Positions 25,390 through 60,341 of a stretch of DNA of 64,000 bases are shown piece by piece. Each line of letters starts with the position of its first letter. Position 1 is the first letter of the stretch. Origin of the DNA: Trueperaceae bacterium (GTDB lineage Bacteria; Deinococcota; Deinococci; Deinococcales; Trueperaceae); assembly GCA_034520945.1 (NCBI GenBank), contig JAXHNB010000005.1, positions 256,001 to 320,000 on the forward strand, written 5' to 3'. A model generated the notes under the pieces. That model worked only from the letters and a program-made list of their open reading frames with translations. It was not told where the DNA came from and ran no database searches. The position numbers and the translations under genes were made by a program.

Positions 25390-26603
25390 TCAGCGACCGT
25401 TGCCGGTGGGGGTGGGCGTGGGGGGCACGCCCGGCTTCTGGCGTTTGGTCCAGGTGCTGGTGGCGGGGATCTTGCTCGTGTCGGCGCGGTGGGCGTATTC
25501 GCGGGCGATGTCGGTGACCTCGGCGAGGAGGCCTTCTTGGAGGGTGGTGGGGTCGAGGCCCATGTCGAGGAAGAGGTCGTTTCTGACGTGGAGGTCGTTC
25601 TCTGCGTCTTCGTTGCGGGGGTTGTCGGTGTAGGCCACCTCGGCGCCGGCGATGTTGGCGACGAGTTCGGCGAGGTCGCGGATGCGGTGGGTTTCGGTCA
25701 TTTGGTTGAGGATCTTGACGCGTTCGCCGGGGTCGGGGGGGTTTTCGAGGGCGAGTTGGATGCAGCGGACGGTGTCGCGGATGTGGATGAAGGCTCTGGT
25801 TTGGCCGCCGGTGCCGTGGACGGTGAGGGGGTAGTGCGCGGCGGCTTGCATCAGGAAGCGGTTGAGGACGGTGCCGTAGTCGCCGTCGTAGTCGAAGCGG
25901 TTGATGAGGCGTTCGTCCTGGTCGCACTCCGGGGTGTGGGTGCCCCAGACGATGCCTTGGTGGAGGTCGGTGATGCGGAGGCGGTCGTTCTTGGCGTAGT
26001 AGGCGAAGAACAGTTGGTCTTGGGTTTTGGTCATGTGGTAGATGCTGCCGGGGTTGGGGGGTAGAGGATCTCTTGTTGGACTTTGCTGCCGTCGTCGGTG
26101 GTGACTTCGACGGGGAGGTAGCCTTCGGGGATTTTCATGCCGGCGGTGCCGTAGCCGTAGACGCCCATGGTGCCGAGGTGGGCGAGGTGCACGTCGAGGC
26201 CGCTCTCTACGATGGCGGCGAGGACGTTGTGGGTGGCGTTGAGGTTGTTGTCGACGGTGTAGCGCTTGTGGGCGCTGCTTTTCATGGAGTAGGGGGCGGC
26301 GCGTTGTTCGGCGAAGTGGACGATGGCGTCGGGTTTCTCGTCCTGGATCAACGTGAGCAGGCGGTGGTAGTTCTTGGCGACGTCGAGGCGTTCGAAGCGG
26401 ATCTCGCGTCCGCTGACCTCGCGCCAGGCCTGCAGTCGGGTGCCCATGTATTGGATGGGGGTGAGGCTGGTGGCTTCGAGTTCGTTGTCGATGTTGCGCC
26501 TCGAGAGGTTGTCGATGATGGTCACGTCGTGGCCGAGGTTGCTGAGGTGCAGGCTGGTGGGCCAGCCGCAGAAGCCGTCGCCGCCGAGGATGAAGATCTT
26601 CAT
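25390..26603 (-). pseudogene. sqdB: UDP-sulfoquinovose synthase, split by a single-base frameshift at about 26056-26061 (real, or a sequencing error)
   Basis: 5' frame: MKIFILGGDGFCGWP, HFAEQRAAPYSMK, HLGTMGVYG, IPEGYL. 3' frame: NPGSIYHMTK, ITDLHQGIVWG, RFDYDGDYGTVLNRF, GTGGQTRAFIHI. The two frames join at a C6 tract. Confidence 0.9.
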
Positions 26604-26706
26604 GTCCGGTCCTCCGAACGCGGGAAATGGCCGAGCAAGACACGCCTCGCCCAGCCTGTGTGCGTGCCGGGAGTCTAGCATCGGCGCCCGCGGGGCCGCC
26701 GGACCG

Positions 26707-27912
26707 TCACGCACGCGGGCGGAACCGGCGCAGCCACGTCCGCCACTTGCGGGCCAGCAGCCTGCGCCGGTACGCCTGCGCCCCCGCCCGCCACTCGCCG
26801 CTGGCCAGCAGGGACCACAGCACCACCACCGAAATGAAGAACGGATGGAGGAGTGACCACCCCACGAGCGCAGGCCGCAGCAGGTCCTCGCGTCCCAGTT
26901 GACGCGCCCCGATGGACATCCCGACCAGCTGCATCGCCACTTCGGCGCCCCACACGCCCGCCACCCAAGGCACCAAAGCGGGAATCCACGGCGTCAGCAC
27001 GATGCTGGACGACAGCACCACGCTGTGCGCGCCCAATACGGCGATCCCCGCGAAGAACGCCGGATGGTAGTGCACAACGTGGTGGTAGCGCGACACCCAG
27101 CGCCGACGCTGCCGAAGCAGGGCGCCCCACGAACGCGCCGGTTTGGTCAGCACGCGCGTCTCGGGCAGGCTCGCGAACGCCATGCGGCTACGCGGCAGCC
27201 GGCCCAGCCGCTGCGCCAGCAGGTCCTCGTCGCCGCTGGGCGCCCGCCCCGGCGCGCCGAACCCGCCGGCGGCGTCGAAGGCCGCGCGCCGGTAGGCCTG
27301 GTTGTTGGCGCTGGACGCGAACTTGAACCCAAGGCGCGTTAAGGAGCGCGACGTCAGCATCAACGACAACCAGTCGATGGTCTCGAACAGGTGCAACCAG
27401 CGCGAGGCCTGGTTCTTGCGCGTCGTTTCGACGTACCCGACCACCATGACTACGCCCGGCGCGAAGTGGGCGACCATGCGTTCCAGCCACCCCGCTGGGT
27501 AGCGGCAGTCGGCATCGCTGGTCACCACGATCTCGCCGCTGGAGGCGCGGATGCCGTGGTCTACCGCGTTTACCTTGGGTGACAGTCGGGTGCTGGGCGC
27601 GCGGACCTGGACCAGGCGCACGCGCGCGTCCCGGGCCGCCGCCCGCCGTACGACCTCGGCCGTCGTGTCTTCCGAGCGGTCGTCGACGATCACGAACTCG
27701 GCCTGGCCCGGATACGTCTGCGCGCTGAGCGACGCCAGCGTGTCCGGCAGGTCCCGCTCTTCGTTGTGCGCAGGGATCACGACCGACACGGATGGGCGCG
27801 CAGCCACCTGCGGTTCGCGGCCACGCAGGAACATGCCTGCCGCCACCAGCCCCATGGACGACAGGTAGATCACGGCCAGCAGGCACAACGAGACGACGTG
27901 GACTTCGAACAC
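26707..27912 (-). CDS. GT2 family membrane glycosyltransferase
   Basis: VSVVIPAHNEE, VDDRSED, SDADC, SGDEDLL, QRRRW, flanking TM helices. Confidence 0.88.
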   Translation of the reverse strand: MFEVHVVSLCLLAVIYLSSMGLVAAGMFLRGREPQVAARPSVSVVIPAHNEERDLPDTLASLSAQTYPGQAEFVIVDDRSEDTTAEVVRRAAARDARVRLVQVRAPSTRLSPKVNAVDHGIRASSGEIVVTSDADCRYPAGWLERMVAHFAPGVVMVVGYVETTRKNQASRWLHLFETIDWLSLMLTSRSLTRLGFKFASSANNQAYRRAAFDAAGGFGAPGRAPSGDEDLLAQRLGRLPRSRMAFASLPETRVLTKPARSWGALLRQRRRWVSRYHHVVHYHPAFFAGIAVLGAHSVVLSSSIVLTPWIPALVPWVAGVWGAEVAMQLVGMSIGARQLGREDLLRPALVGWSLLHPFFISVVVLWSLLASGEWRAGAQAYRRRLLARKWRTWLRRFRPRA

Positions 27913-36665: not shown

Positions 36666-36741
36666 GCCACCCTAGCTCAATTGGCAGAGCATCCGACTTG
36701 TAATCGGAAGGTTGTCGGTTCGACTCCGATGGGTGGCTCCA
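36666..36741 (+). tRNA. tRNA-Thr(TGT)
   Basis: Acceptor GCCACCC/GGGTGGC, anticodon loop CT-TGT-AA, GTTCGA T-loop, encoded CCA. Confidence 0.95.
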
Positions 36742-36779
36742 GCACCGTGACCGAGGTCCGCGCGGCTCCGGGTTCGCCC

Positions 36780-36864
36780 GGGCAGGTGCCCGAGTGGTTA
36801 AAGGGGACGGTCTGTAAAACCGTTGGCTACGCCTTCGCTGGTTCGAATCCAGCCCTGCCCACCA
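36780..36864 (+). tRNA. tRNA-Tyr(GTA)
   Basis: Acceptor GGGCAGG/CCTGCCC, anticodon loop CT-GTA-AA, long variable arm, GTTCGAA, ACCA end. Confidence 0.95.
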
Positions 36865-36927
36865 CGCTAGGAGCCGTTCCGGGGGCGCGCCTCCGGGGGT
36901 CCGGGTCCGGGGTCCGCCCCGATCCGT

Positions 36928-37003
<76 letters not shown>

Positions 37004-37047
37004 AGCATCTCCGGCTGCCGTCGGAGGTGCGCTCGGGTCCCGAGTAG

Positions 37048-37122
<75 letters not shown>

Positions 37123-37239
37123 ATCTGGATCCCAGGCCCGCGTGATCGGCACGGAGCGTCCGGCCGGTCACGCAGATGCTGCCGCCGCGCCTGACGTACG
37201 ACACCCTCCCAGGCCGGCCCCCAGGAAAGGACGATTGTC

Positions 37240-38457
37240 ATGGCGAAAGCGACGTTTGAGCGTTCGAAGCCGCATGTGAATGTGGGGACGATTGGGCATG
37301 TGGATCATGGGAAGACGACGTTGACGGCTGCGATTACGTTTGCGGCTGCGGCGGCGGATCCGTCTGCTGAGACGATGTCGTATGAGCAGATCGATAAGGC
37401 GCCGGAGGAGAAGGCGCGGGGGATTACGATTAATACGGCGCATGTGGAGTATCAGACGGGGGCGCGTCATTATTCGCATGTGGATTGTCCGGGGCATGCG
37501 GATTATGTGAAGAACATGATTACGGGGGCGGCGCAGATGGATGGTGCGGTGTTGGTGGTGTCGGCGGCGGATGGGCCGATGCCGCAGACGCGTGAGCATA
37601 TTTTGTTGGCGCGTCAGGTGGGGGTGCCGTATGTGGTGGTGTTTTTGAACAAGGTGGACATGGTGGATGATGAGGAGTTGTTGGAGTTGGTGGAGATGGA
37701 GGTGCGGGAGCTTTTGTCGAGTTATGAGTTCCCGGGGGATGATGTGCCGGTGGTGTCGGGGTCGGCGTTGAAGGCGTTGGAGGCGTTGGTGGCGAATCCG
37801 AATGTGCAGCGGGGTGAGGATTCGTGGGTGGATCAGGTTTGGTCGTTGATGGATGCGTTGGATGGGTATGTGCCGACGCCTGAGCGTGATGTGGATAAGC
37901 CGTTCTTGATGCCTGTGGAGGATGTGTTCACGATTACGGGTCGTGGGACGGTGGCGACGGGTCGTGTTGAGCGGGGTGTGGTGAAGACGGGGGATGAGGT
38001 CGAGATCGTGGGGTTGTCGGCGACGCGGAAGTCTGTGGTGACGGGTGTGGAGATGCATCGGAAGACGCTTCAGTCGGGGATGGCTGGGGATAATGTGGGG
38101 GTTTTGTTGCGGGGGGTTGCGCGTGATGAGGTGGCGCGGGGTCAGGTGTTGGCGAAGCCTGGGTCGATTACGCCGCATACGAAGTTTCGGGGGTCGGTGT
38201 ATGTGTTGCGGAAGGATGAGGGGGGTCGGCATAGTGCGTTTTTTGCGGGGTATCGGCCTCAGTTTTACTTTCGTACGACGGATGTGACGGGGGTGTGTAC
38301 GTTGCCGGGGGATGTGGAGATGGTGATGCCGGGGGATAATGTGGAGTTGTCGGTGTCGTTGATTAAGCCGATTGCGATGGAGGAGGGGTTGCGGTTTGCG
38401 ATTCGTGAGGGGGGTCGTACGGTGGGTGCGGGTGTCGTGACGGGGATCGAGGAGTAA
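37240..38457 (+). CDS. tuf: Elongation factor Tu
   Basis: [37 protein letters not shown]. Located after the tRNA cluster (tufB-type locus). Confidence 0.98.
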
Positions 38458-38460
38458 GCC

Positions 38461-38502
38461 CGCGCGGCGGCCGGCTTGCGAAAGGGCCGGCCGCCGCGCG
38501 TT
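38461..38502 (+). terminator. Hairpin after tuf
   Basis: CGCGCGGCGGCCGGC...GCCGGCCGCCGCGCG inverted repeat. Confidence 0.6.
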
Positions 38503-38661
38503 GCGCGACACCGACCGGTGCGCGCAGATGCTAGGCTCGGTAGGTTGCCCCGGCGCGGTTCGTCGCGCTGAGCCGTCCGAACCCGTGCCGAGACCCCGCG
38601 CGGGGGTCCCTGGCACGGATTCACGAACGCCCGGAACGTACGCCCCGAACGGGAGAAGATC

Positions 38662-38826
38662 ATGGCCAGTGACGTCCGAATCAAACTGCTGTTGGAGTGC
38701 ACGGAGTGCAAGCGCCGCAACTACGCTACGCACAAGAACCGGCGCAACACCACGGCGAAGCTCCAGCTCCGCAAGTTCTGTCCGTGGGACCGCAAGCACA
38801 CCCCTCATCGCGAAGTGAAGGTGTGA
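38662..38826 (+). CDS. rpmG: 50S ribosomal protein L33
   Basis: Translated by hand (below the ORF-track cutoff): [54 protein letters not shown]. Confidence 0.95.
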
Positions 38827-38829
38827 GGC

Positions 38830-39009
38830 GTGAAGGCGATCCTGCGCTACTTGCGGAACTCCCGCGCCGAGCTCGGCCGCGTCACCTGGCCCACGCGGAA
38901 CGAAGTGATTCAGGCCACCCAGGCGACCCTGTTGTTCGTGCTGATCACGGTGGCGTTCCTTCTGGTGGCGGACACCACGCTCGGCAACCTCATCGGCCTG
39001 ATCACCTGA
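38830..39009 (+). CDS. secE: Preprotein translocase subunit SecE
   Basis: Translated by hand: VKAILRYLRNSRAELGRVTWPTRNEV plus one TM helix. Lies between rpmG and nusG. Confidence 0.93.
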   Translation: MKAILRYLRNSRAELGRVTWPTRNEVIQATQATLLFVLITVAFLLVADTTLGNLIGLIT

Positions 39010-39048
39010 TCATCGCCGTGGGCGCCCCGGTCCCGGGAGGACGTTGAC

Positions 39049-39606
39049 GTGAGCATCGAATGGTACGCCGTCCATACCTACGTGGGCCACGAGGACAAGG
39101 TGAAGGACAACATCCAGAACCGGGCCAAGACGCTCGGGATCTCGGATCGGATCTACCAGGTGGTCGTGCCCAGCGAGGAGACGGTGGAGCATGCCGGCGG
39201 CGGCAAGCGCGAGGTGGTGAAGCGGAAGCTGTTTCCCGGCTACATCTTCGTGCAGATGGACCTCGGAGACGACCCCAACGAGCCCAACGAGGCCTGGGAG
39301 GTCGTGAGGTACACGCCGGGCGTGACCGGGTTCGTGGGCAGCTCCTCGCGGGCGGTGCCGCTCTCGCCGGAAGAGGAGCAGAGCATGTTGGGGACGTTCG
39401 GCATCACCGGCTCGAAGGCGGCCCCCAAGATCAAGGTCACCTTCTATCCCGGAGACACCGTGCAGGTCACGTCGGGACCGTTCGCGGACTTCACCGGCAT
39501 GGTGTCCGAGGTGAATCCGGAGCGGGGAACCCTCAAGGTGTTGGTGTCGATCTTCGGGCGGGAGACCCCGGTCGAACTCGATTTTGCGCAGGTCGTCAAG
39601 AGCTGA
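39049..39606 (+). CDS. nusG: Transcription elongation factor NusG
   Basis: [50 protein letters not shown]. Confidence 0.97.
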
Positions 39607-39673: not shown

Positions 39674-40106
39674 ATGGCCAAGAAGGTCGCAGGAATCGTG
39701 AAACTGCAGCTGCCCGCGGGGGGCGCCACGCCGGCGCCGCCGGTGGGGCCGGCGCTCGGCCAATACGGCGCCAACATCATGCAGTTCGTCAAGGAGTACA
39801 ACGCCGCCACCGCCGATCAGGCGGGCGCGATCGTGCCGGTCGAGATCATTATCTTCTCCGACCGCTCGTTCACGTTCAAGATGAGGACGCCACCCGCCAG
39901 CTACCTGATCAAGCAGGCGGCGGGCATCGACAAGGGCTCGGGCGTGCCGCACAAGGAGAAGGTCGGCAGCATCAGCTGGGACCAGTGCCTCGAGATCGGC
40001 CGCCGCAAGATGAGCGACCTGAACGCCACCGACGAGTCGGCGGCCGCCCACATCATCGCGGGAAGCGCCCGCTCGATGGGCGTCGACGTGGAGGGAGCCC
40101 CCGCTG

Positions 40107-40114
<8 letters not shown>
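39674..40114 (+). CDS. rplK: 50S ribosomal protein L11
   Basis: [28 protein letters not shown]. Confidence 0.97.
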
Positions 40115-41925: not shown

Positions 41926-42318
41926 GGCGCCCCACCCGCACCGGATGCAACGCGGGACGGCCCGGCCGGCCGAGTTCGGCCGGGCCCCGCGCCCAAGATG
42001 CGGGGCGTTCTTGCACGTGGACGACATCGCCGCGTCCTATTTGGTCGTACGCTTGGTATTTGAACTGTTCGCCCGCCTGCTCCCCGTGGAGGTGGACTTG
42101 CGCAGCGCGTCAGAGATCACGGTCTCGTGCACGGACCGAACGGGACCGGCGGTGGAGAGGGGCACGCCTCCCGCCAACCTCTCAGGAACGTCTTCAGGCA
42201 GCGACCGGGCACGCCCGACGGCACATGGCGGGCGGGTATCTCCGTGCGCGCCCGCACCGCGTGACCGGGAAGAGGGGCATCCTACGGCGGTCCCAACGTA
42301 CGCAGCGAAGGGGTGACA

Positions 42319-45300
42319 ATGCGCAAGATCGAATCGTTCGGCAGCATTCGTGAGGTCACGGAGCTACCGAACCTCACCAACATCCAGATCACGTCCTACG
42401 AGCATTTCCTGCAACGCGAGCTGGCACCGAATCAACGCGACATGCACGGCCTGCAGGCGGCATTCCGCGAGGTCTTCCCGATCGACGAGACCGAGCGCGG
42501 CCGCCAGACCGGCCTGGTCATCGACTTCCTCGAGTATACCTTGACCGAACCGGAATTCGGCCCGGACGAATGTCGCGAGAAGGACCTCAGCTACCAGGCG
42601 GGCCTGTTCGCCAAGCTCCAGTTGGTGCACAAGGACACCGGCCTGATCAAGGAGGACCAGGTCTTCCTGGGCGACCTTCCCTTGATGACGGAGGATGGCT
42701 CGTTCGTGATCAACGGCGCGGACCGCGTGATCGTGTCGCAGATCCACCGCTCGCCCGGGGTGTACTTCACCAGCACCCTGCGGGGCAGCGGCGCGAAGAG
42801 CCTGACGGCCAGCATCATCCCGATGCCGAAGCGCGGCCCGTGGATCGAGCTCGAGTTCGACAACGCCGGCGTGCTGTGGATGAAGGTGAACAAGCGCAAG
42901 TTCCCGTTCTCGCTGCTGTTGCGCGTCCTCGGCTACGACGACGGGAGCATTCGGGAGCTGTTCGAGGGGAACGCCGCGCTGGTCGACCCGACGTTGGAGG
43001 CGGAGGAGTCGGCCGGCATCACGCCGGAAGAGGCGCTGTTGCGCCTGTTCACCGTGCTTCGGCCCGGCGACCCGCCGAAGGTGGACAAGGCGACCAGCTA
43101 CCTGCACAGCCTGCTGGCCGACCCGCGCCGCTACGATCTCGGCGACGCGGGCCGCTACAAGGTCAACCAGAAGCTGGGTTTGGACTTCGAGGAGAAGACG
43201 CTCCTCGGCTACGAGGACGGCCGCTTCGTCGACTACGGCCTGGTGCCGACCCTGCAGTACCTGATTCGCCTTCAGGCGAATGATGAAGAGGTGGGCGAGG
43301 ACGACATCGACCACCTCGGCAATCGCCGCATCCGCACGGTGGGCGAACTGGTGGCCGATCAGATCCGGGTGGGCCTGGGCCGCATGGCGCGCGGCGTGCG
43401 CGAGCGGATGCTGCTCGGCAACGCGGACGCGGCCACCCCCCAGAAGCTGATCAACAACCGGCCGATCGTCGCGGCGTTGCGGGAGTTCTTCGGCCGAAGT
43501 CAGTTGTCGCAGTTCAAGGACCAGATCAATCCGCTCTCCGAGCTGCGGCACAAGCGGCGCATCTCGGCGCTCGGCCCGGGCGGCCTCACCCGTGAGCGCG
43601 CCGGCTTCGATGTTCGCGACGTGCACCGCACCCACTACGGCCGCATCTGCCCCATCGAGACGCCCGAGGGCGCCAACATCGGGCTGATCACCTCGCTCGC
43701 CAGCTACTCGCGCGTCAACGGGCTCGGCTTCATCGAAGCCCCCTACCGCCGGGTGAAGAACCACAAGGTCAGCGACGAGGTCGTGTACATGACGGCCCAC
43801 GAGGAGGACAAGTACGTCATCGCCCAGGCGAACACGGTCCTCGAGGAGGACGGCTCGTTCCAGAACGAACGGATCGTGGCCAGGGACCGGGGCGAGCCGG
43901 TGTTCGCCTCCTGGGACACCGTCGACTTCATGGACGTGTCGCCGAAGCAGATCATCTCGGTGCCGACCTCGCTGATCCCGTTCCTCGAGCACGACGACGC
44001 CAACCGGGCCTTGATGGGCTCCAACATGCAGTCGCAAGCGGTGCCCCTCGTCAAGGCCGACGCGCCGTACGTCGGGACCGGCGTCGAGGAACGCATCAGT
44101 CTCGACTCCGGCACCTGCCTGGTGGCGATGGAGGCCGGCACGATCAGCTACGTCGACGCCAACATGATCCGCGTCACCAGCGCCAAGGGCGTCGAGCGGG
44201 AGTACGTGCTGACGCGCTTCCAACGCTCGAACCAGAACACCAACCTGGACCAGCACCCCGTCGTGAACCTCGGCGACGAGGTGGCCGAGGGCCAGGTCAT
44301 TGCCGATGGGCCCGCCTCCCAGAACGGCCGATTGGCGCTGGGACAGAACATCCTGATCGCGGTGATGCCGTTCGACGGGTACAACTTCGAGGACGCCATC
44401 GTGCTGTCCGAAGAGCTGGTCCGCAGCGACGCCTACACCTCCGTGCACGTCGAGAAGTTCGAGAAAGAGGCGCGCGAGACCAAGCTGGGCCCCGAGAAGA
44501 TCACCCGAGACATCCCGGGCCTGTCCGAAGCAGCGCTGCGCGACCTGGACGAAGACGGTGTCGTCCGCATCGGCGCCGACGTGAAGCACAACTCGATCCT
44601 GGTGGGGCACACCAGCTTCAAGGGCGAGAAGGATCCCACCCCCGAGGAGCGTCTGCTGCGCTCGATCTTCGGCGAGAAGGCGCGCGAGGTCAAGGACACC
44701 TCGCTGCGCGTCCCGCCCGGCGACAGCGGCGTGGTGCTCCGCACCGTGCGGTTCCGCCGCGGGGACGAAGGGGTCGAGCTCAAACCCGGCGTGCAGGAGA
44801 TGGTGCGCGTCTACCTCGCCCAGAAGCGCCGCCTGATCGAGGGCGACAAGCTGGCGAACCGGCACGGCAACAAGGGCGTCGTCGCCAAGATTCTTCCCCC
44901 CGAGGACATGCCCTACCTCGAGGACGGCACGCCGGTCGACCTGGTGTTCAACCCCCTCGGCGTGCCCAGCCGCATGAACCTCGGGCAGGTGCTCGAGACG
45001 CACCTCGGCTTCGCCGCCTACAAGCACGGCGTCAGCTACGTGACCCCGGTGTTCGACGGCGCGGGCGAGGACCGCATCAAGGACCTGCTGGAAGAGGCGG
45101 TGCGCGGCGACATCGAGGAACGGAACAAGGCCGGCTACCAGCCCGATCGGCGCGAGTTGGAGGTGATCCGACGCGCGGCCAAGCTGGGGGTGCTGGAACA
45201 CGGTCAGGATCCCGAGGATGCCCAGATCGCGCTGGCCCGCTCCGGGAAGTCCGTCCTGTACGACGGCCGCACCGGCGAGGCGATCGACGCGCCCATCGTG

Positions 45301-45696
45301 GTGGGCATCATGTACGTGCTGAAGCTCTACCACATGGTGGAGGACAAGATGCACGCCCGCTCCACGGGCCCCTACAGCCTGATCACGCAGCAGCCGTTGG
45401 GCGGCAAGGCCCAGTTCGGCGGGCAGCGCCTCGGAGAGATGGAGTGCTGGGCGTTGCAGGCCCACGGCGCCGCCCATACGTTGCAGGAGATGCTGACCAT
45501 CAAGTCGGACGATCTGGACGGCCGAAACGCCGCCTACGAGGCGATCGTGAAGGGCAGTGACGTGTTGGAGGCGACCATCCCCGAATCGTTCAAGGTGCTC
45601 GTCAAGGAACTGCACTCGTTGGGCCTGGACGTCAAGGTGCTCGACGCGGACGACACGGCGCTCAGCATCTTCGACGAAGCCGGGCGGCACTGGTGA
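42319..45696 (+). CDS. rpoB: RNA polymerase beta subunit
   Basis: [56 protein letters not shown]. Alternative GTG start at 42313. Confidence 0.98.
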
Positions 45697-45728
45697 ACGC
45701 GCGTTCGAACACGTTCGAAGGGACACGC

Positions 45729-50312
<4,584 letters not shown>

Positions 50313-58670: not shown

Positions 58671-60341
<1,671 letters not shown>

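Follow-up and report, generated by a model that had tools for sequence, protein, structure and literature searches.

The tuf gene for elongation factor Tu (EF-Tu) of a Trueperaceae bacterium is written almost entirely in codons ending in G or T, and this bias begins and ends with a coding sequence that recurs, nearly unchanged, at a second locus. The gene lies in a stretch of 64,000 nt (hereafter the window; G000:C5:256001-320000) of the assembly under study, G000, which comprises 3.47 Mb in 10 contigs at 71% G+C, with 97% completeness and 5% estimated contamination. The only other native converted gene pair in G000, recA, shows the same bias, confined to the tract in which its copies are identical. 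We propose that gene conversion policed by the mismatch-repair protein NucS ratchets the silent sites of tuf and recA towards G and T on the sense strand, a reading that we regard as about evenly balanced. Its wider form, in which a strand-specific "keto-biased gene conversion" would rewrite any concerted paralogue pair to G/T-only silent sites in prokaryotes carrying NucS alone, we hold with slightly less assurance.

The 405-codon reading frame of tuf (37240..38457, plus strand) encodes a product with matches to the Pfam domains PF00009 (GTP_EFTU; 5.8e-66), PF03144 (D2; 1e-19) and PF03143 (D3; 1.4e-38). Its third positions hold 279 G, 113 T, 12 C and one A, so that 392 of the 405 codons end in G or T, and it closes with TAA; expressed as keto3, the share of codons with G or T at the third position, the bias is 0.968. 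A preliminary description of the window had noted that none of the first 50 codons ends in C, and the earliest to do so is indeed ATC at codon 51. The codons it had named as prominent are also borne out by the counts: GAT (25/26), CAT (11/11), ATT (11/14), TTT (9/12), GTG (48/54), GGG (29/40), TTG (24/26) and CGT (11/24). T occupies 75 of the 85 two-fold sites of NNY type (C or T; 88%), two-fold sites of NNR type (A or G) carry G throughout except for a single AAA, and four-fold sites hold 183 G, 38 T, 2 C and no A. Leucine is encoded by TTG 24 times, by CTT twice and never by CTG; arginine by CGT (11) and CGG (13), with AGG and AGA unused (0/24); and the 19 serine codons are TCG (15), TCT (2) and AGT (2). 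By our own count, 390 of the 405 codons are the synonym richest in keto bases. Across the genome, A is about level with T at four-fold sites (40,485 vs 48,706). The tuf gene has a G+C content of 59% against 71% for the genome, and its G+C share at third positions (GC3) is 0.72 against a genome mean near 0.86.

The codon rule of tuf is thus a preference for keto (G, T) over amino (A, C) bases on the sense strand wherever the code allows it, and not an avoidance of C, which would favour AGG and AGT and be indifferent to A versus T; tuf shows neither. AGG and AGA go unused since a C-to-A change in an arginine codon gains no keto base. The mutational spectrum put forward in the preliminary description, C to T plus A to G on the plus strand, did not survive these counts: it cannot place G far above T at four-fold sites from a C-rich ancestor, and related tuf genes differ mostly by exchanges between G and T.

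Chance is excluded as a cause of the bias. Among 10,855 open reading frames (ORFs) of at least 120 aa, keto3 exceeds 0.85 in only two, both of them tuf. Non-overlapping ORFs (n=2,627) have a mean keto3 of 0.472 with a standard deviation of 0.061, which places tuf at z = 8.1 and the next-ranked ORF at 0.769. A scan of 34,601 sliding windows of 600 nt likewise puts the genome maximum at the two tuf loci.

The bias has sharp edges, which can be located among the following features of the window.

36666..37122, plus strand: tRNA genes Thr(tgt), Tyr(gta), Gly(ccc) and Thr(ggt), directly 5' of tuf (ARAGORN)
37123..37239, plus strand: spacer or leader of 117 nt from the last tRNA gene to the ATG, with 45 C and 37 G; unskewed
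37240..38457, plus strand: tufB-type EF-Tu gene, identical with the G/T-skew tract (codon counts, Pfam)
37168..38808, minus strand: antisense open frame of 546 aa spanning tuf; a by-product, with no evidence of a gene
38458..38662, plus strand: 3' flank of 205 nt, unskewed, with a G+C-rich inverted repeat (a putative hairpin, spotted by eye)
39049-39606, plus strand: nusG, control; keto3 0.52
39674-40114, plus strand: rplK, control; keto3 0.44
42313..50312, plus strand: rpoB (by Pfam) and rpoC (named from position and length only), controls
58671..60341, plus strand: groEL (Cpn60), control; keto3 0.38, with C at 0.58 and T at 0.03 of third positions

The four tRNA genes followed by tuf form the canonical tRNA-tufB arrangement, continued on the 3' side by rpmG (read from the sequence), nusG, rplK and rpoBC. 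The G+T fraction rises from 0.444 in the leader to 0.688 in the tuf coding sequence and returns to 0.488 in the following 205 nt, with the change lying no more than 3 nt from the ends of the coding sequence, so that the boundaries reported earlier hold. The long antisense frame stays open because sense third positions of tuf offer no A (the lone AAA apart), and an in-register antisense frame cannot then contain TAA, TAG or TGA.

Other highly expressed genes are ordinary. Besides the values listed, keto3 is 0.44 in rpoB, 0.45 in rpoC and 0.49 in fusA; C makes up 0.44 of third positions in nusG, 0.51 in rplK, 0.52 in rpoB and 0.51 in rpoC, and T makes up 0.03-0.04 across these controls. The earlier contrast between tuf and its neighbours therefore stands, with the correction that "mainly C-ending" is slightly too strong for nusG, in which G (0.48) exceeds C (0.44). 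Twelve plus-strand ORFs of the S10-spc region have a mean keto3 of 0.438, and T ends 8.6% of their NNY codons against 88% in tuf. The ORFs that rank below tuf encode a group II intron reverse transcriptase, Mrr, type I restriction subunits, RecA, an HD-domain protein and an IS4 transposase; an expression gradient topped by tuf was rejected, the next-ranked ORFs not being highly expressed genes. The group II intron reverse transcriptase/maturase ORF (C5:835810-837240, plus strand, with a fragment at C5:576316-576945, plus strand) is second to tuf, with keto3 0.77 and T at 0.26 of third positions. An island at C5:20062-28600 (plus strand) encoding type I restriction-modification subunits (HsdM, HsdR) and an Mrr-type nuclease reaches 0.64-0.73 with G-rich third positions and has no paralogue in the genome.

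The second tuf copy lies outside the window, at G000:C5:484701-485918, between an EF-G-sized, fusA-like ORF and rpsJ. It differs from the first at 4 of 1218 nt (coding-sequence nt 492, 495, 498 and 666) and encodes an identical protein, and similarity between the two loci is restricted to the coding sequence and 3 nt on either side of it, the flanks being unrelated. Both copies thus occupy canonical loci (fusA-tuf-rpsJ and tRNA-tuf-rpmG-nusG), and the duplication anticipated in the preliminary description is confirmed, with a tract of identity that matches the skew tract to within 3 nt at either end. The copies are probably homogenised by gene conversion, since EF-Tu proteins have diverged across genera (82-92% at the amino-acid level) while copies within a genome remain 99.7-100% identical. 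At the second locus, keto3 is 0.43 in the last 100 codons of fusA and 0.41 in the first 100 codons of rpsJ, which excludes a transcript-wide or regional process there.

The sequence of tuf was also compared with public sequencing runs. In the probable source run (X1), eight listed contig pieces tile 36694-39100 without differences, except for one piece with changes at 37731, 37734 and 37737, which are the second-copy variants at coding-sequence nt 492, 495 and 498. The best-matching run is labelled salt pan metagenome. Runs of other studies contain close relatives whose tuf differences are dominated by exchanges between G and T (35/78 in X3, 41/108 in X5 and 32/59 in X17), as a constraint to "G or T only" predicts. 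The metatranscriptome X17 holds only tuf pieces of 90-95% similarity, hence from relatives.

Self-comparison of G000 revealed that recA is duplicated as well (C2:418546-419520, plus strand, and C6:599212-600186, minus strand), with 99.3% identity over 975 nt and unrelated N- and C-terminal ends. Within the identical tract keto3 is 0.748, a value reached by just 3 of the 2,627 non-overlapping ORFs; past its end, the C-terminal codons of the two copies stand at 0.51 and 0.48. Three relatives in which NucS was found and MutS was not repeat this pattern: tract keto3 is 0.919 in G019 (930 nt, 100% identity), 0.878 in G020 (982 nt, 100%) and 0.797 in G005 (961 nt, 99.4%), against 0.529, 0.583 and 0.529 before the tract and 0.476, 0.455 and 0.424 after it. 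The 3' edges of recA tracts are enriched in C-ending codons. In G013, where MutS was found and NucS was not, the recA tract of 972 nt is also 100% identical, and its keto3 is 0.497. The fully identical pairs are thus those of G013, G019 and G020, the last two in inverted orientation. Judged by sequence comparison, two recA genes appear to be under concerted evolution in several genera of the family. Genomes with one recA match are ordinary in other families (0.32-0.56) and, where the match lies inside a contig, in the NucS-only genomes G023 (0.42), G024 (0.47) and G012 (0.52). A bias limited to a tract within the less abundant RecA is the strongest argument against selection on the message or on translation, and for a process linked to conversion.

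The preliminary description had attributed the bias to a strand-asymmetric mutational or conversion process acting on repeated sequence. As a conversion-linked process on duplicated sequence this is largely right, given the tuf and recA tracts; its extension to repeats in general failed, as did its spectrum of transitions. Thirteen other repeat groups of G000, which include insertion sequence (IS)-like copies, tandem duplications and contig-level redundancy, have ORF keto3 values of 0.18-0.60, and a repeat-targeted process resembling repeat-induced point mutation was rejected on this ground. Near-identical stretches are shared between contigs C1 and C7 (97-98%), C2 and C3 (99.4%), C4 and C8 (97%), and the end of C5 and the start of C10; some of these contig-level repeats may be strain redundancy, given the estimated contamination. 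C2 also carries a 16.9-kb tandem duplication, as well as a tandem array of units of about 543 nt at 99% identity (G000:C2:316278-317820) inside a 727-aa minus-strand ORF. The plus-strand skew of this array, G+T minus A+C, is 0.39 per base (0 = balanced), and amino-acid composition may lie behind it.

To place G000 among its relatives, 41 automatically selected genomes of the same genus, family and order were examined, 28 of which gave a tuf sequence. The bias is extreme (keto3 0.93-0.99) in the congeneric genomes G001, G003, G004 and G005 and in three further genera (G016, G019, G020), lower in G015 (0.83) and G018 (0.82), and replaced by ordinary or C-rich usage in G013 (0.43), G017 (0.47), G033 (0.36), and G026 and G034 (both 0.27). 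In the tuf pairs of the complete or near-complete genomes G013, G018, G019, G020, G030 and G033, the coding sequences are identical or nearly so and the surroundings unrelated, whether the genes are biased or not. Duplication with conversion is therefore general among these relatives, and the bias is not. The second tuf of G005 (C13:518418-519632; L140), with three in-frame stops, was considered as a decaying pseudogene, and this was rejected in favour of a local frameshift or assembly error: besides about 14 substitutions, the alignment shows one inserted base (+1) and, some 200 nt away, one base missing from a G run (-1), between which about 68 codons are out of frame, either through a homopolymer assembly error or as a real compensated frameshift. 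Beyond the order, tuf genes from many other lineages have keto3 values of at most 0.76 in 80 of 80 cases.

What separates biased from unbiased relatives is, to a large extent, their mismatch-repair state, called here from one Pfam domain each (NucS_C and MutS domain I, MutS_I) in draft genomes. G000 carries a full NucS ORF (C2:304155-305096; NucS_N 2.8e-17, NucS_C 1e-23), and this 97% complete assembly gave no match to MutS_I and none to the MutL DNA_mis_repair domain. One ORF of 816 aa has a MutS_V domain without domain I and is read as MutS2-like from its domain content. NucS_C is strongly matched in each of the 11 genomes of the genus, counting G000, and in the majority of genera in the family, with MutS_I not found in these; MutS_I is found in the three NucS-less genera of the family with data (G011, G013, G017) and in other families. 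Among Bacteria, according to the part of PMC5290159 available, NucS is confined to Actinobacteria and Deinococcus-Thermus, and the Deinococcus-Thermus species mentioned in that part of the survey carry both systems.

Sorted by repair state, the 28 relatives fall into four groups. With NucS found and MutS not found (n=11), tuf keto3 is 0.68-0.986 with a median of 0.968; with MutS found and NucS not found (n=9), it is 0.349-0.825 with a median of 0.469. Genomes with both (n=4) stand at 0.351, 0.356, 0.476 and 0.785, and those in which neither was found (n=4) at 0.269, 0.269, 0.472 and 0.505. No value above 0.93 lies outside the first of these groups. Gene conversion alone is insufficient for the bias, since some relatives lack it despite tuf or recA pairs of 100% identity: in G013 both pairs are 100% identical, with keto3 of 0.43 (tuf) and 0.497 (recA).

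A second phylum offers a parallel. We searched 401 genomes of the phylum of an "Actinomycetota" metagenome-assembled genome (MAG; L071, G041) with tuf DNA and measured tuf in 68. The best tuf matches across phyla share 70-77% nucleotide identity, and nearly all of these best matches come from genomes with two equal-scoring matches 15-40 kb apart. Over the 401 genomes, MutS_I was found in 30 and NucS_C in 130; these two tallies include genomes flagged as unpublished, and no other claim rests on them. Five Actinomycetota genomes (G041-G045) gave no NucS_C match. Where NucS was found and MutS was not, genomes with two tuf matches (n=30) have a median keto3 of 0.73 (0.58-0.92), seven of the ten with one match are at 0.41-0.50, and the two with three or four matches are at 0.62 and 0.64. 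Genomes with MutS found, NucS not found and two matches (n=12) have a median of 0.53 (0.45-0.68). With neither found, seven of eight two-match genomes are at 0.36-0.40 and one at 0.74, and six one-match genomes are at 0.40-0.58. The NucS-only genomes picked before their values were known separate by match number: 0.82, 0.79, 0.73, 0.73, 0.71, 0.64 and 0.58 with two matches (n=7), against 0.50, 0.49, 0.47, 0.46, 0.44, 0.42 and 0.41 with one (n=7). G+C content does not explain the pattern, since biased genomes with a GC3 of 0.47-0.58 use T, not A, at four-fold sites, and unbiased two-copy genomes have a GC3 of 0.94-0.99.

The mechanism that we propose starts from the fact that a silent difference between two copies can appear in the heteroduplex as either of two complementary mismatches, according to how the strands are paired. 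Of these, NucS would see the keto-keto kind (G·T, G·G, T·T) and miss A·C, A·A and C·C. If the heteroduplex is assumed to pair mostly the recipient sense strand with the donor antisense strand, a donor G or T facing a recipient A or C would produce an invisible mismatch and be copied in, and a donor A or C facing a recipient G or T would produce a visible one, be cut and abort the event. New G/T variants would thereby reach both copies, and new A/C variants would be erased. The mismatches A·G and C·T, which would settle G versus T and A versus C, are taken to be treated alike, so that arginine would stay CGN and the G:T ratio would track genomic G+C. With MutS also present, A·C would be seen too and the asymmetry would fade; with neither system there would be no bias. 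This graded pattern by repair state is what the order and the second phylum show, apart from the exceptions named below.

Several published observations bear on these steps. EndoMS cleaves G/T, G/G and T/T and not C/A, and its authors relate its mutation pattern to more T and G on the leading strand (both from the available part of PMC6159521); in M. smegmatis, NucS corrects the mismatches G-G, G-T and T-T in vivo, as given in the accessible portion of PMC11551767. The literature also describes inhibition of homeologous recombination by NucS, and in Haloferax deletion of nucS severely impairs gene conversion (PMC11276520, in excerpt). Conversion between Salmonella tuf genes is 200-1000-fold rarer if the heteroduplex is detected by MutS, with weakly recognised mismatches evading it, according to the part of PMC5485169 at hand. 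By our estimate, keeping T at about 90% of NNY sites, where its background share is about 14%, takes a bias of about 100-fold, which falls within that measured effect of mismatch recognition. The substrate range, known from the C. glutamicum and M. smegmatis enzymes, is extended by analogy to the archaeal-type NucS of this lineage; that NucS polices the conversion heteroduplex in these organisms is likewise suggested by analogy, and the strand polarity of that heteroduplex is a supposition of the model.

Some indication of polarity comes from inverted recA pairs. In G020 the copies at 0.59 Mb (plus strand) and 0.84 Mb (minus strand) are 100% identical and keto-rich on the sense strand, and the same holds in G019. 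The dnaA gene of G020 lies at 2.79 of 2.92 Mb, and GC skew is positive in 7 of 8 sampled 20-kb windows at 0.2-1.2 Mb and noisy over the rest of the chromosome, which suggests that the two copies share one replichore. Such pairs argue against a purely replichore-defined sign, a possibility raised in the preliminary description that finds no support here, and favour a polarity linked to transcription, since replication alone would by our reasoning drive inverted copies apart. One possible source would be transcription-coupled repair, which may leave lesions, and hence post-replication gaps, on the non-transcribed strand. In G000 itself GC skew is faint, with a positive sign on the plus strand of most contigs, and the background effect of strand on keto3 is small (0.485 vs 0.457).

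A number of observations weigh against this account. Repair states rest on single domains in drafts, in which absence means "not found"; the relatives are non-independent, and the NucS-only genera of the family may be a single clade. In G027 and G031, with MutS_I found and NucS-like matches below threshold, tuf reaches 0.81-0.83, and in G030, with both found, 0.785; in these three, C is replaced by G at four-fold sites and just 33-44% of NNY codons end in T. Five genomes of the second phylum with MutS found are at 0.62-0.68. Given these MutS-bearing exceptions in the order and the second phylum, NucS is not required for moderate bias. Match number is an imperfect guide, being no copy number: four fragmentary MAGs of the same genus with one recA match are biased (0.69-0.86), as are three of the ten NucS-only one-match genomes of the second phylum (0.69-0.96), all on MAG contigs and including the one Actinomycetota MAG above 0.93. 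In that phylum, moreover, 30 of the 68 genomes were ascertained as top DNA matches to a biased query. The tuf of G018 (L131, L132) is a mosaic, moderately C-ending in codons 1-220 and almost purely G/T-ending in codons 220-405, in copies that are identical throughout the coding sequence. Single-copy defence and mobile genes of G000 reach 0.70-0.77 without a paralogue, and two minus-strand genes of G000 are A/C-ending within plus-strand G/T-rich islands, contrary to a universal sense-strand rule. Nor can tuf separate the sense from the leading strand. Finally, a preprint suggests that NucS repair is reduced during recombination in mycobacteria, which if general would undercut the mechanism.

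The two A/C-ending minus-strand genes are as follows. The hypothetical ORF at C5:16362-17051 (minus strand) has the lowest keto3 of the genome (0.183), with many CGA, CTA and CAA codons and two CxxC pairs, a mirror of the tuf pattern; a 90%-identical copy at C6:941632-942459 (minus strand) has keto3 0.284, and the pair sits in 1.5-kb repeats. These G/T-rich repeats (C5:15.7-17.2 kb and C6:941-942.5 kb) matched no Rfam family, and their minus-strand ORF matched no Pfam family. In the window, an epimerase-like ORF (SQD1-like, by eye) at 26031-26714 (minus strand) has C at 0.665 and A at 0.115 of third positions and keto3 0.22, and the plus strand there is a G/T-rich island with a G+T minus A+C skew of 0.37 per base. 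The gene possibly continues in another frame (25390-26643, minus strand), and the shift may be a frameshift or a sequencing error.

Of the other explanations, a conversion-linked drive independent of NucS fares best, and we consider it unlikely without being negligible. Some other asymmetry of recombination would favour G/T-rich sense strands in duplicates; candidates are a preference of RecA for GT-rich single strands, a mismatch glycosylase, or recognition of MutS type that is more efficient for G·G and G·T than for C·C and A·C. Such a drive would account for a bias limited to identical tracts and for moderate values (0.62-0.83) where MutS was found and NucS was not. Unequal MutS efficiencies per mismatch also shape Salmonella tuf conversion (PMC5485169, in the part available). 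RecA, however, is present everywhere, and yet identical copies lack the bias in G013, G033 and G026 and in seven genomes of the second phylum that have two copies, and the restriction of values above 0.93 among the 28 relatives to one repair state speaks against any drive of this kind. A bulk preference for composition is also unlikely to yield a per-site bias of the order that we estimate.

Transcription-associated damage, in which the non-template strand of the most transcribed gene would be deaminated (C to T, A to G) and conversion would merely spread the result, strikes us as rather improbable. It fits G and T as the deamination products of A and C, the position of the bias on the sense strand, and the stronger bias of tuf than of recA in the same genomes (0.968 vs 0.748 in G000); wild-type C. 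glutamicum, in the portion of PMC6159521 available, also has more C to T and A to G on the leading strand. The boundary data weigh heavily against it: fusA and rpsJ, in the same operon, are ordinary right up to the codons next to tuf, the leader of tufB is rich in C, and recA codons outside the tract are ordinary within the same ORF and presumably the same transcript. The twelve ORFs of the ribosomal-protein region are not shifted (keto3 0.438, T at 0.086 of NNY), relatives with an equally essential tuf are unbiased, and both the excess of G over T at four-fold sites and the differences between G and T among relatives need transversions.

Selection on the tuf mRNA, by which a C-poor, G/U-rich message would fold weakly, resist Rho (whose loading sites are rich in C) or escape a C- or A-specific ribonuclease, is in our view quite improbable. 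The bias is limited to the coding sequence, in the most abundant message, and C is nearly absent from its silent sites; loss of C would by itself lower folding energy trivially. Against this, the rule concerns keto bases and not poverty in C, the C-free arginine codons AGG and AGA being unused (0/24), and four-fold sites hold no A against 38 T, though A would pair less than U. The leader is C-rich, the ribosomal-protein genes, fusA, rpoBC and groEL lack the bias, the bias of recA ends at the tract edge within the ORF, and the one-match recA genes of G012, G023 and G024 are unbiased (0.42-0.52).

Less credible still is translational selection that, through the tRNA pool, favours codons ending in G or T. 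The tuf gene is a classic target of codon selection, and tRNA-Gly(CCC), the reader of GGG, lies in the tufB operon. NNT is nevertheless preferred over NNC in every two-fold family (75/85), though one G34 tRNA reads both, and the usual NNY preference under translational selection is for C, the opposite of tuf. No other highly expressed gene examined shares the bias, and the boundaries of the recA tract come close to refuting this explanation. Lastly, mis-assembly, consensus error or a transferred tuf allele, which the low G+C content of tuf (59% in a 71% genome) and the 5% estimated contamination might have suggested, is scarcely credible, given that the bias is present at both canonical loci, that the contigs of the probable source run match down to three variants of the second copy, that it recurs in independent samples and in a further 10 genomes of the family with NucS only, and that none of 80 tuf genes from other lineages exceeds 0.76, so that no plausible donor with such usage across its genome was seen; the judgement of the preliminary description that horizontal transfer is unlikely is upheld by the shared bias of genus and family.

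If NucS-policed conversion does underlie the pattern, it would amount to a strongly biased bacterial gene conversion, specific to strand and base class, that overrides codon selection in the most expressed gene; the role of conversion bias in bacterial composition is an open debate. Pairs such as tuf and recA would then be natural recorders of mismatch specificity and heteroduplex polarity, and would let NucS specificity and the polarity of recombination intermediates be read cheaply from genome sequence. It would also produce convergent nucleotide sequences across phyla, this tuf sharing 77% nucleotide identity with actinobacterial tuf. As a reference for optimal codons, expression indices or alien-gene detection, tuf would mislead in these lineages, and G/T-only recoding inflates nucleotide similarity between unrelated phyla where tuf and recA serve as phylogenetic or barcoding markers; both genes also break MAG contigs. 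Within the full-text literature covered, which leaves out most subscription journals, no description of a G/T-only tuf or of keto-biased conversion was found. New here are the tract-limited bias of recA, the unbiased identical pairs in relatives with MutS found and NucS not found, the association with NucS and the keto rule.

Several known systems resemble this one in part. Replication and transcription asymmetries place G above C and T above A on leading and non-template strands, which is the sign seen in tuf, whose excess of keto bases lies on the sense strand, probably also the leading one; their trace in the G000 background is slight (0.485 vs 0.457), whereas tuf stands at 0.97, ends at its coding sequence and spares co-transcribed genes. 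Transcription-associated asymmetry extends over a whole unit and scales with expression, and tuf and recA do not follow this course. Translationally selected bias is recognised by its sharing among highly expressed genes, which here lack it, and the NNY direction is reversed. Of a Rho-refractory or C-depleted message, tuf shows the C depletion and the G excess, and departs from prediction in its T over A (38 vs 0), its unused AGR codons and its C-rich leader.

GC-biased gene conversion (gBGC), reportedly developed by Duret and Galtier and, in 2015, by Lassalle et al., is alike in being a non-adaptive, selection-like fixation bias that arises from repair of the conversion heteroduplex. It favours G:C pairs on either strand, whereas tuf takes T over C at NNY sites (75/85) and has a GC3 of 0.72 against about 0.86; its choice of G over C at four-fold sites (183 vs 2) is strand-specific and impossible for a bias acting on base pairs, so that tuf falls outside gBGC.

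The concerted evolution of tufA and tufB by RecA-dependent gene conversion was reportedly described by Abdulkarim and Hughes in 1996. The Salmonella and E. coli model shares with G000 two tuf genes in canonical loci with identity confined to the coding sequence, and in the part of Paulsson et al. 2017 (PMC5485169) available, recognised mismatches cut conversion, the same principle that we invoke for G000. That part describes no directional, strand-specific composition, whereas the silent sites here are 97% G/T; and the model relies on MutSL, whereas the mismatch system here appears to be NucS. NucS/EndoMS repair is known from C. glutamicum, M. smegmatis and Thermococcales (PMC6159521, PMC11551767 and PMC5290159, each in part), and G000 likewise has a full-length NucS, with MutS1 and MutL not found. 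The substrates of NucS (G·T, G·G and T·T) are exactly the set of keto-keto mismatches. Its published effects, within those portions, are genome-wide and amount to a mild skew, whereas in G000 the recoding is near-total and confined to converted paralogues.

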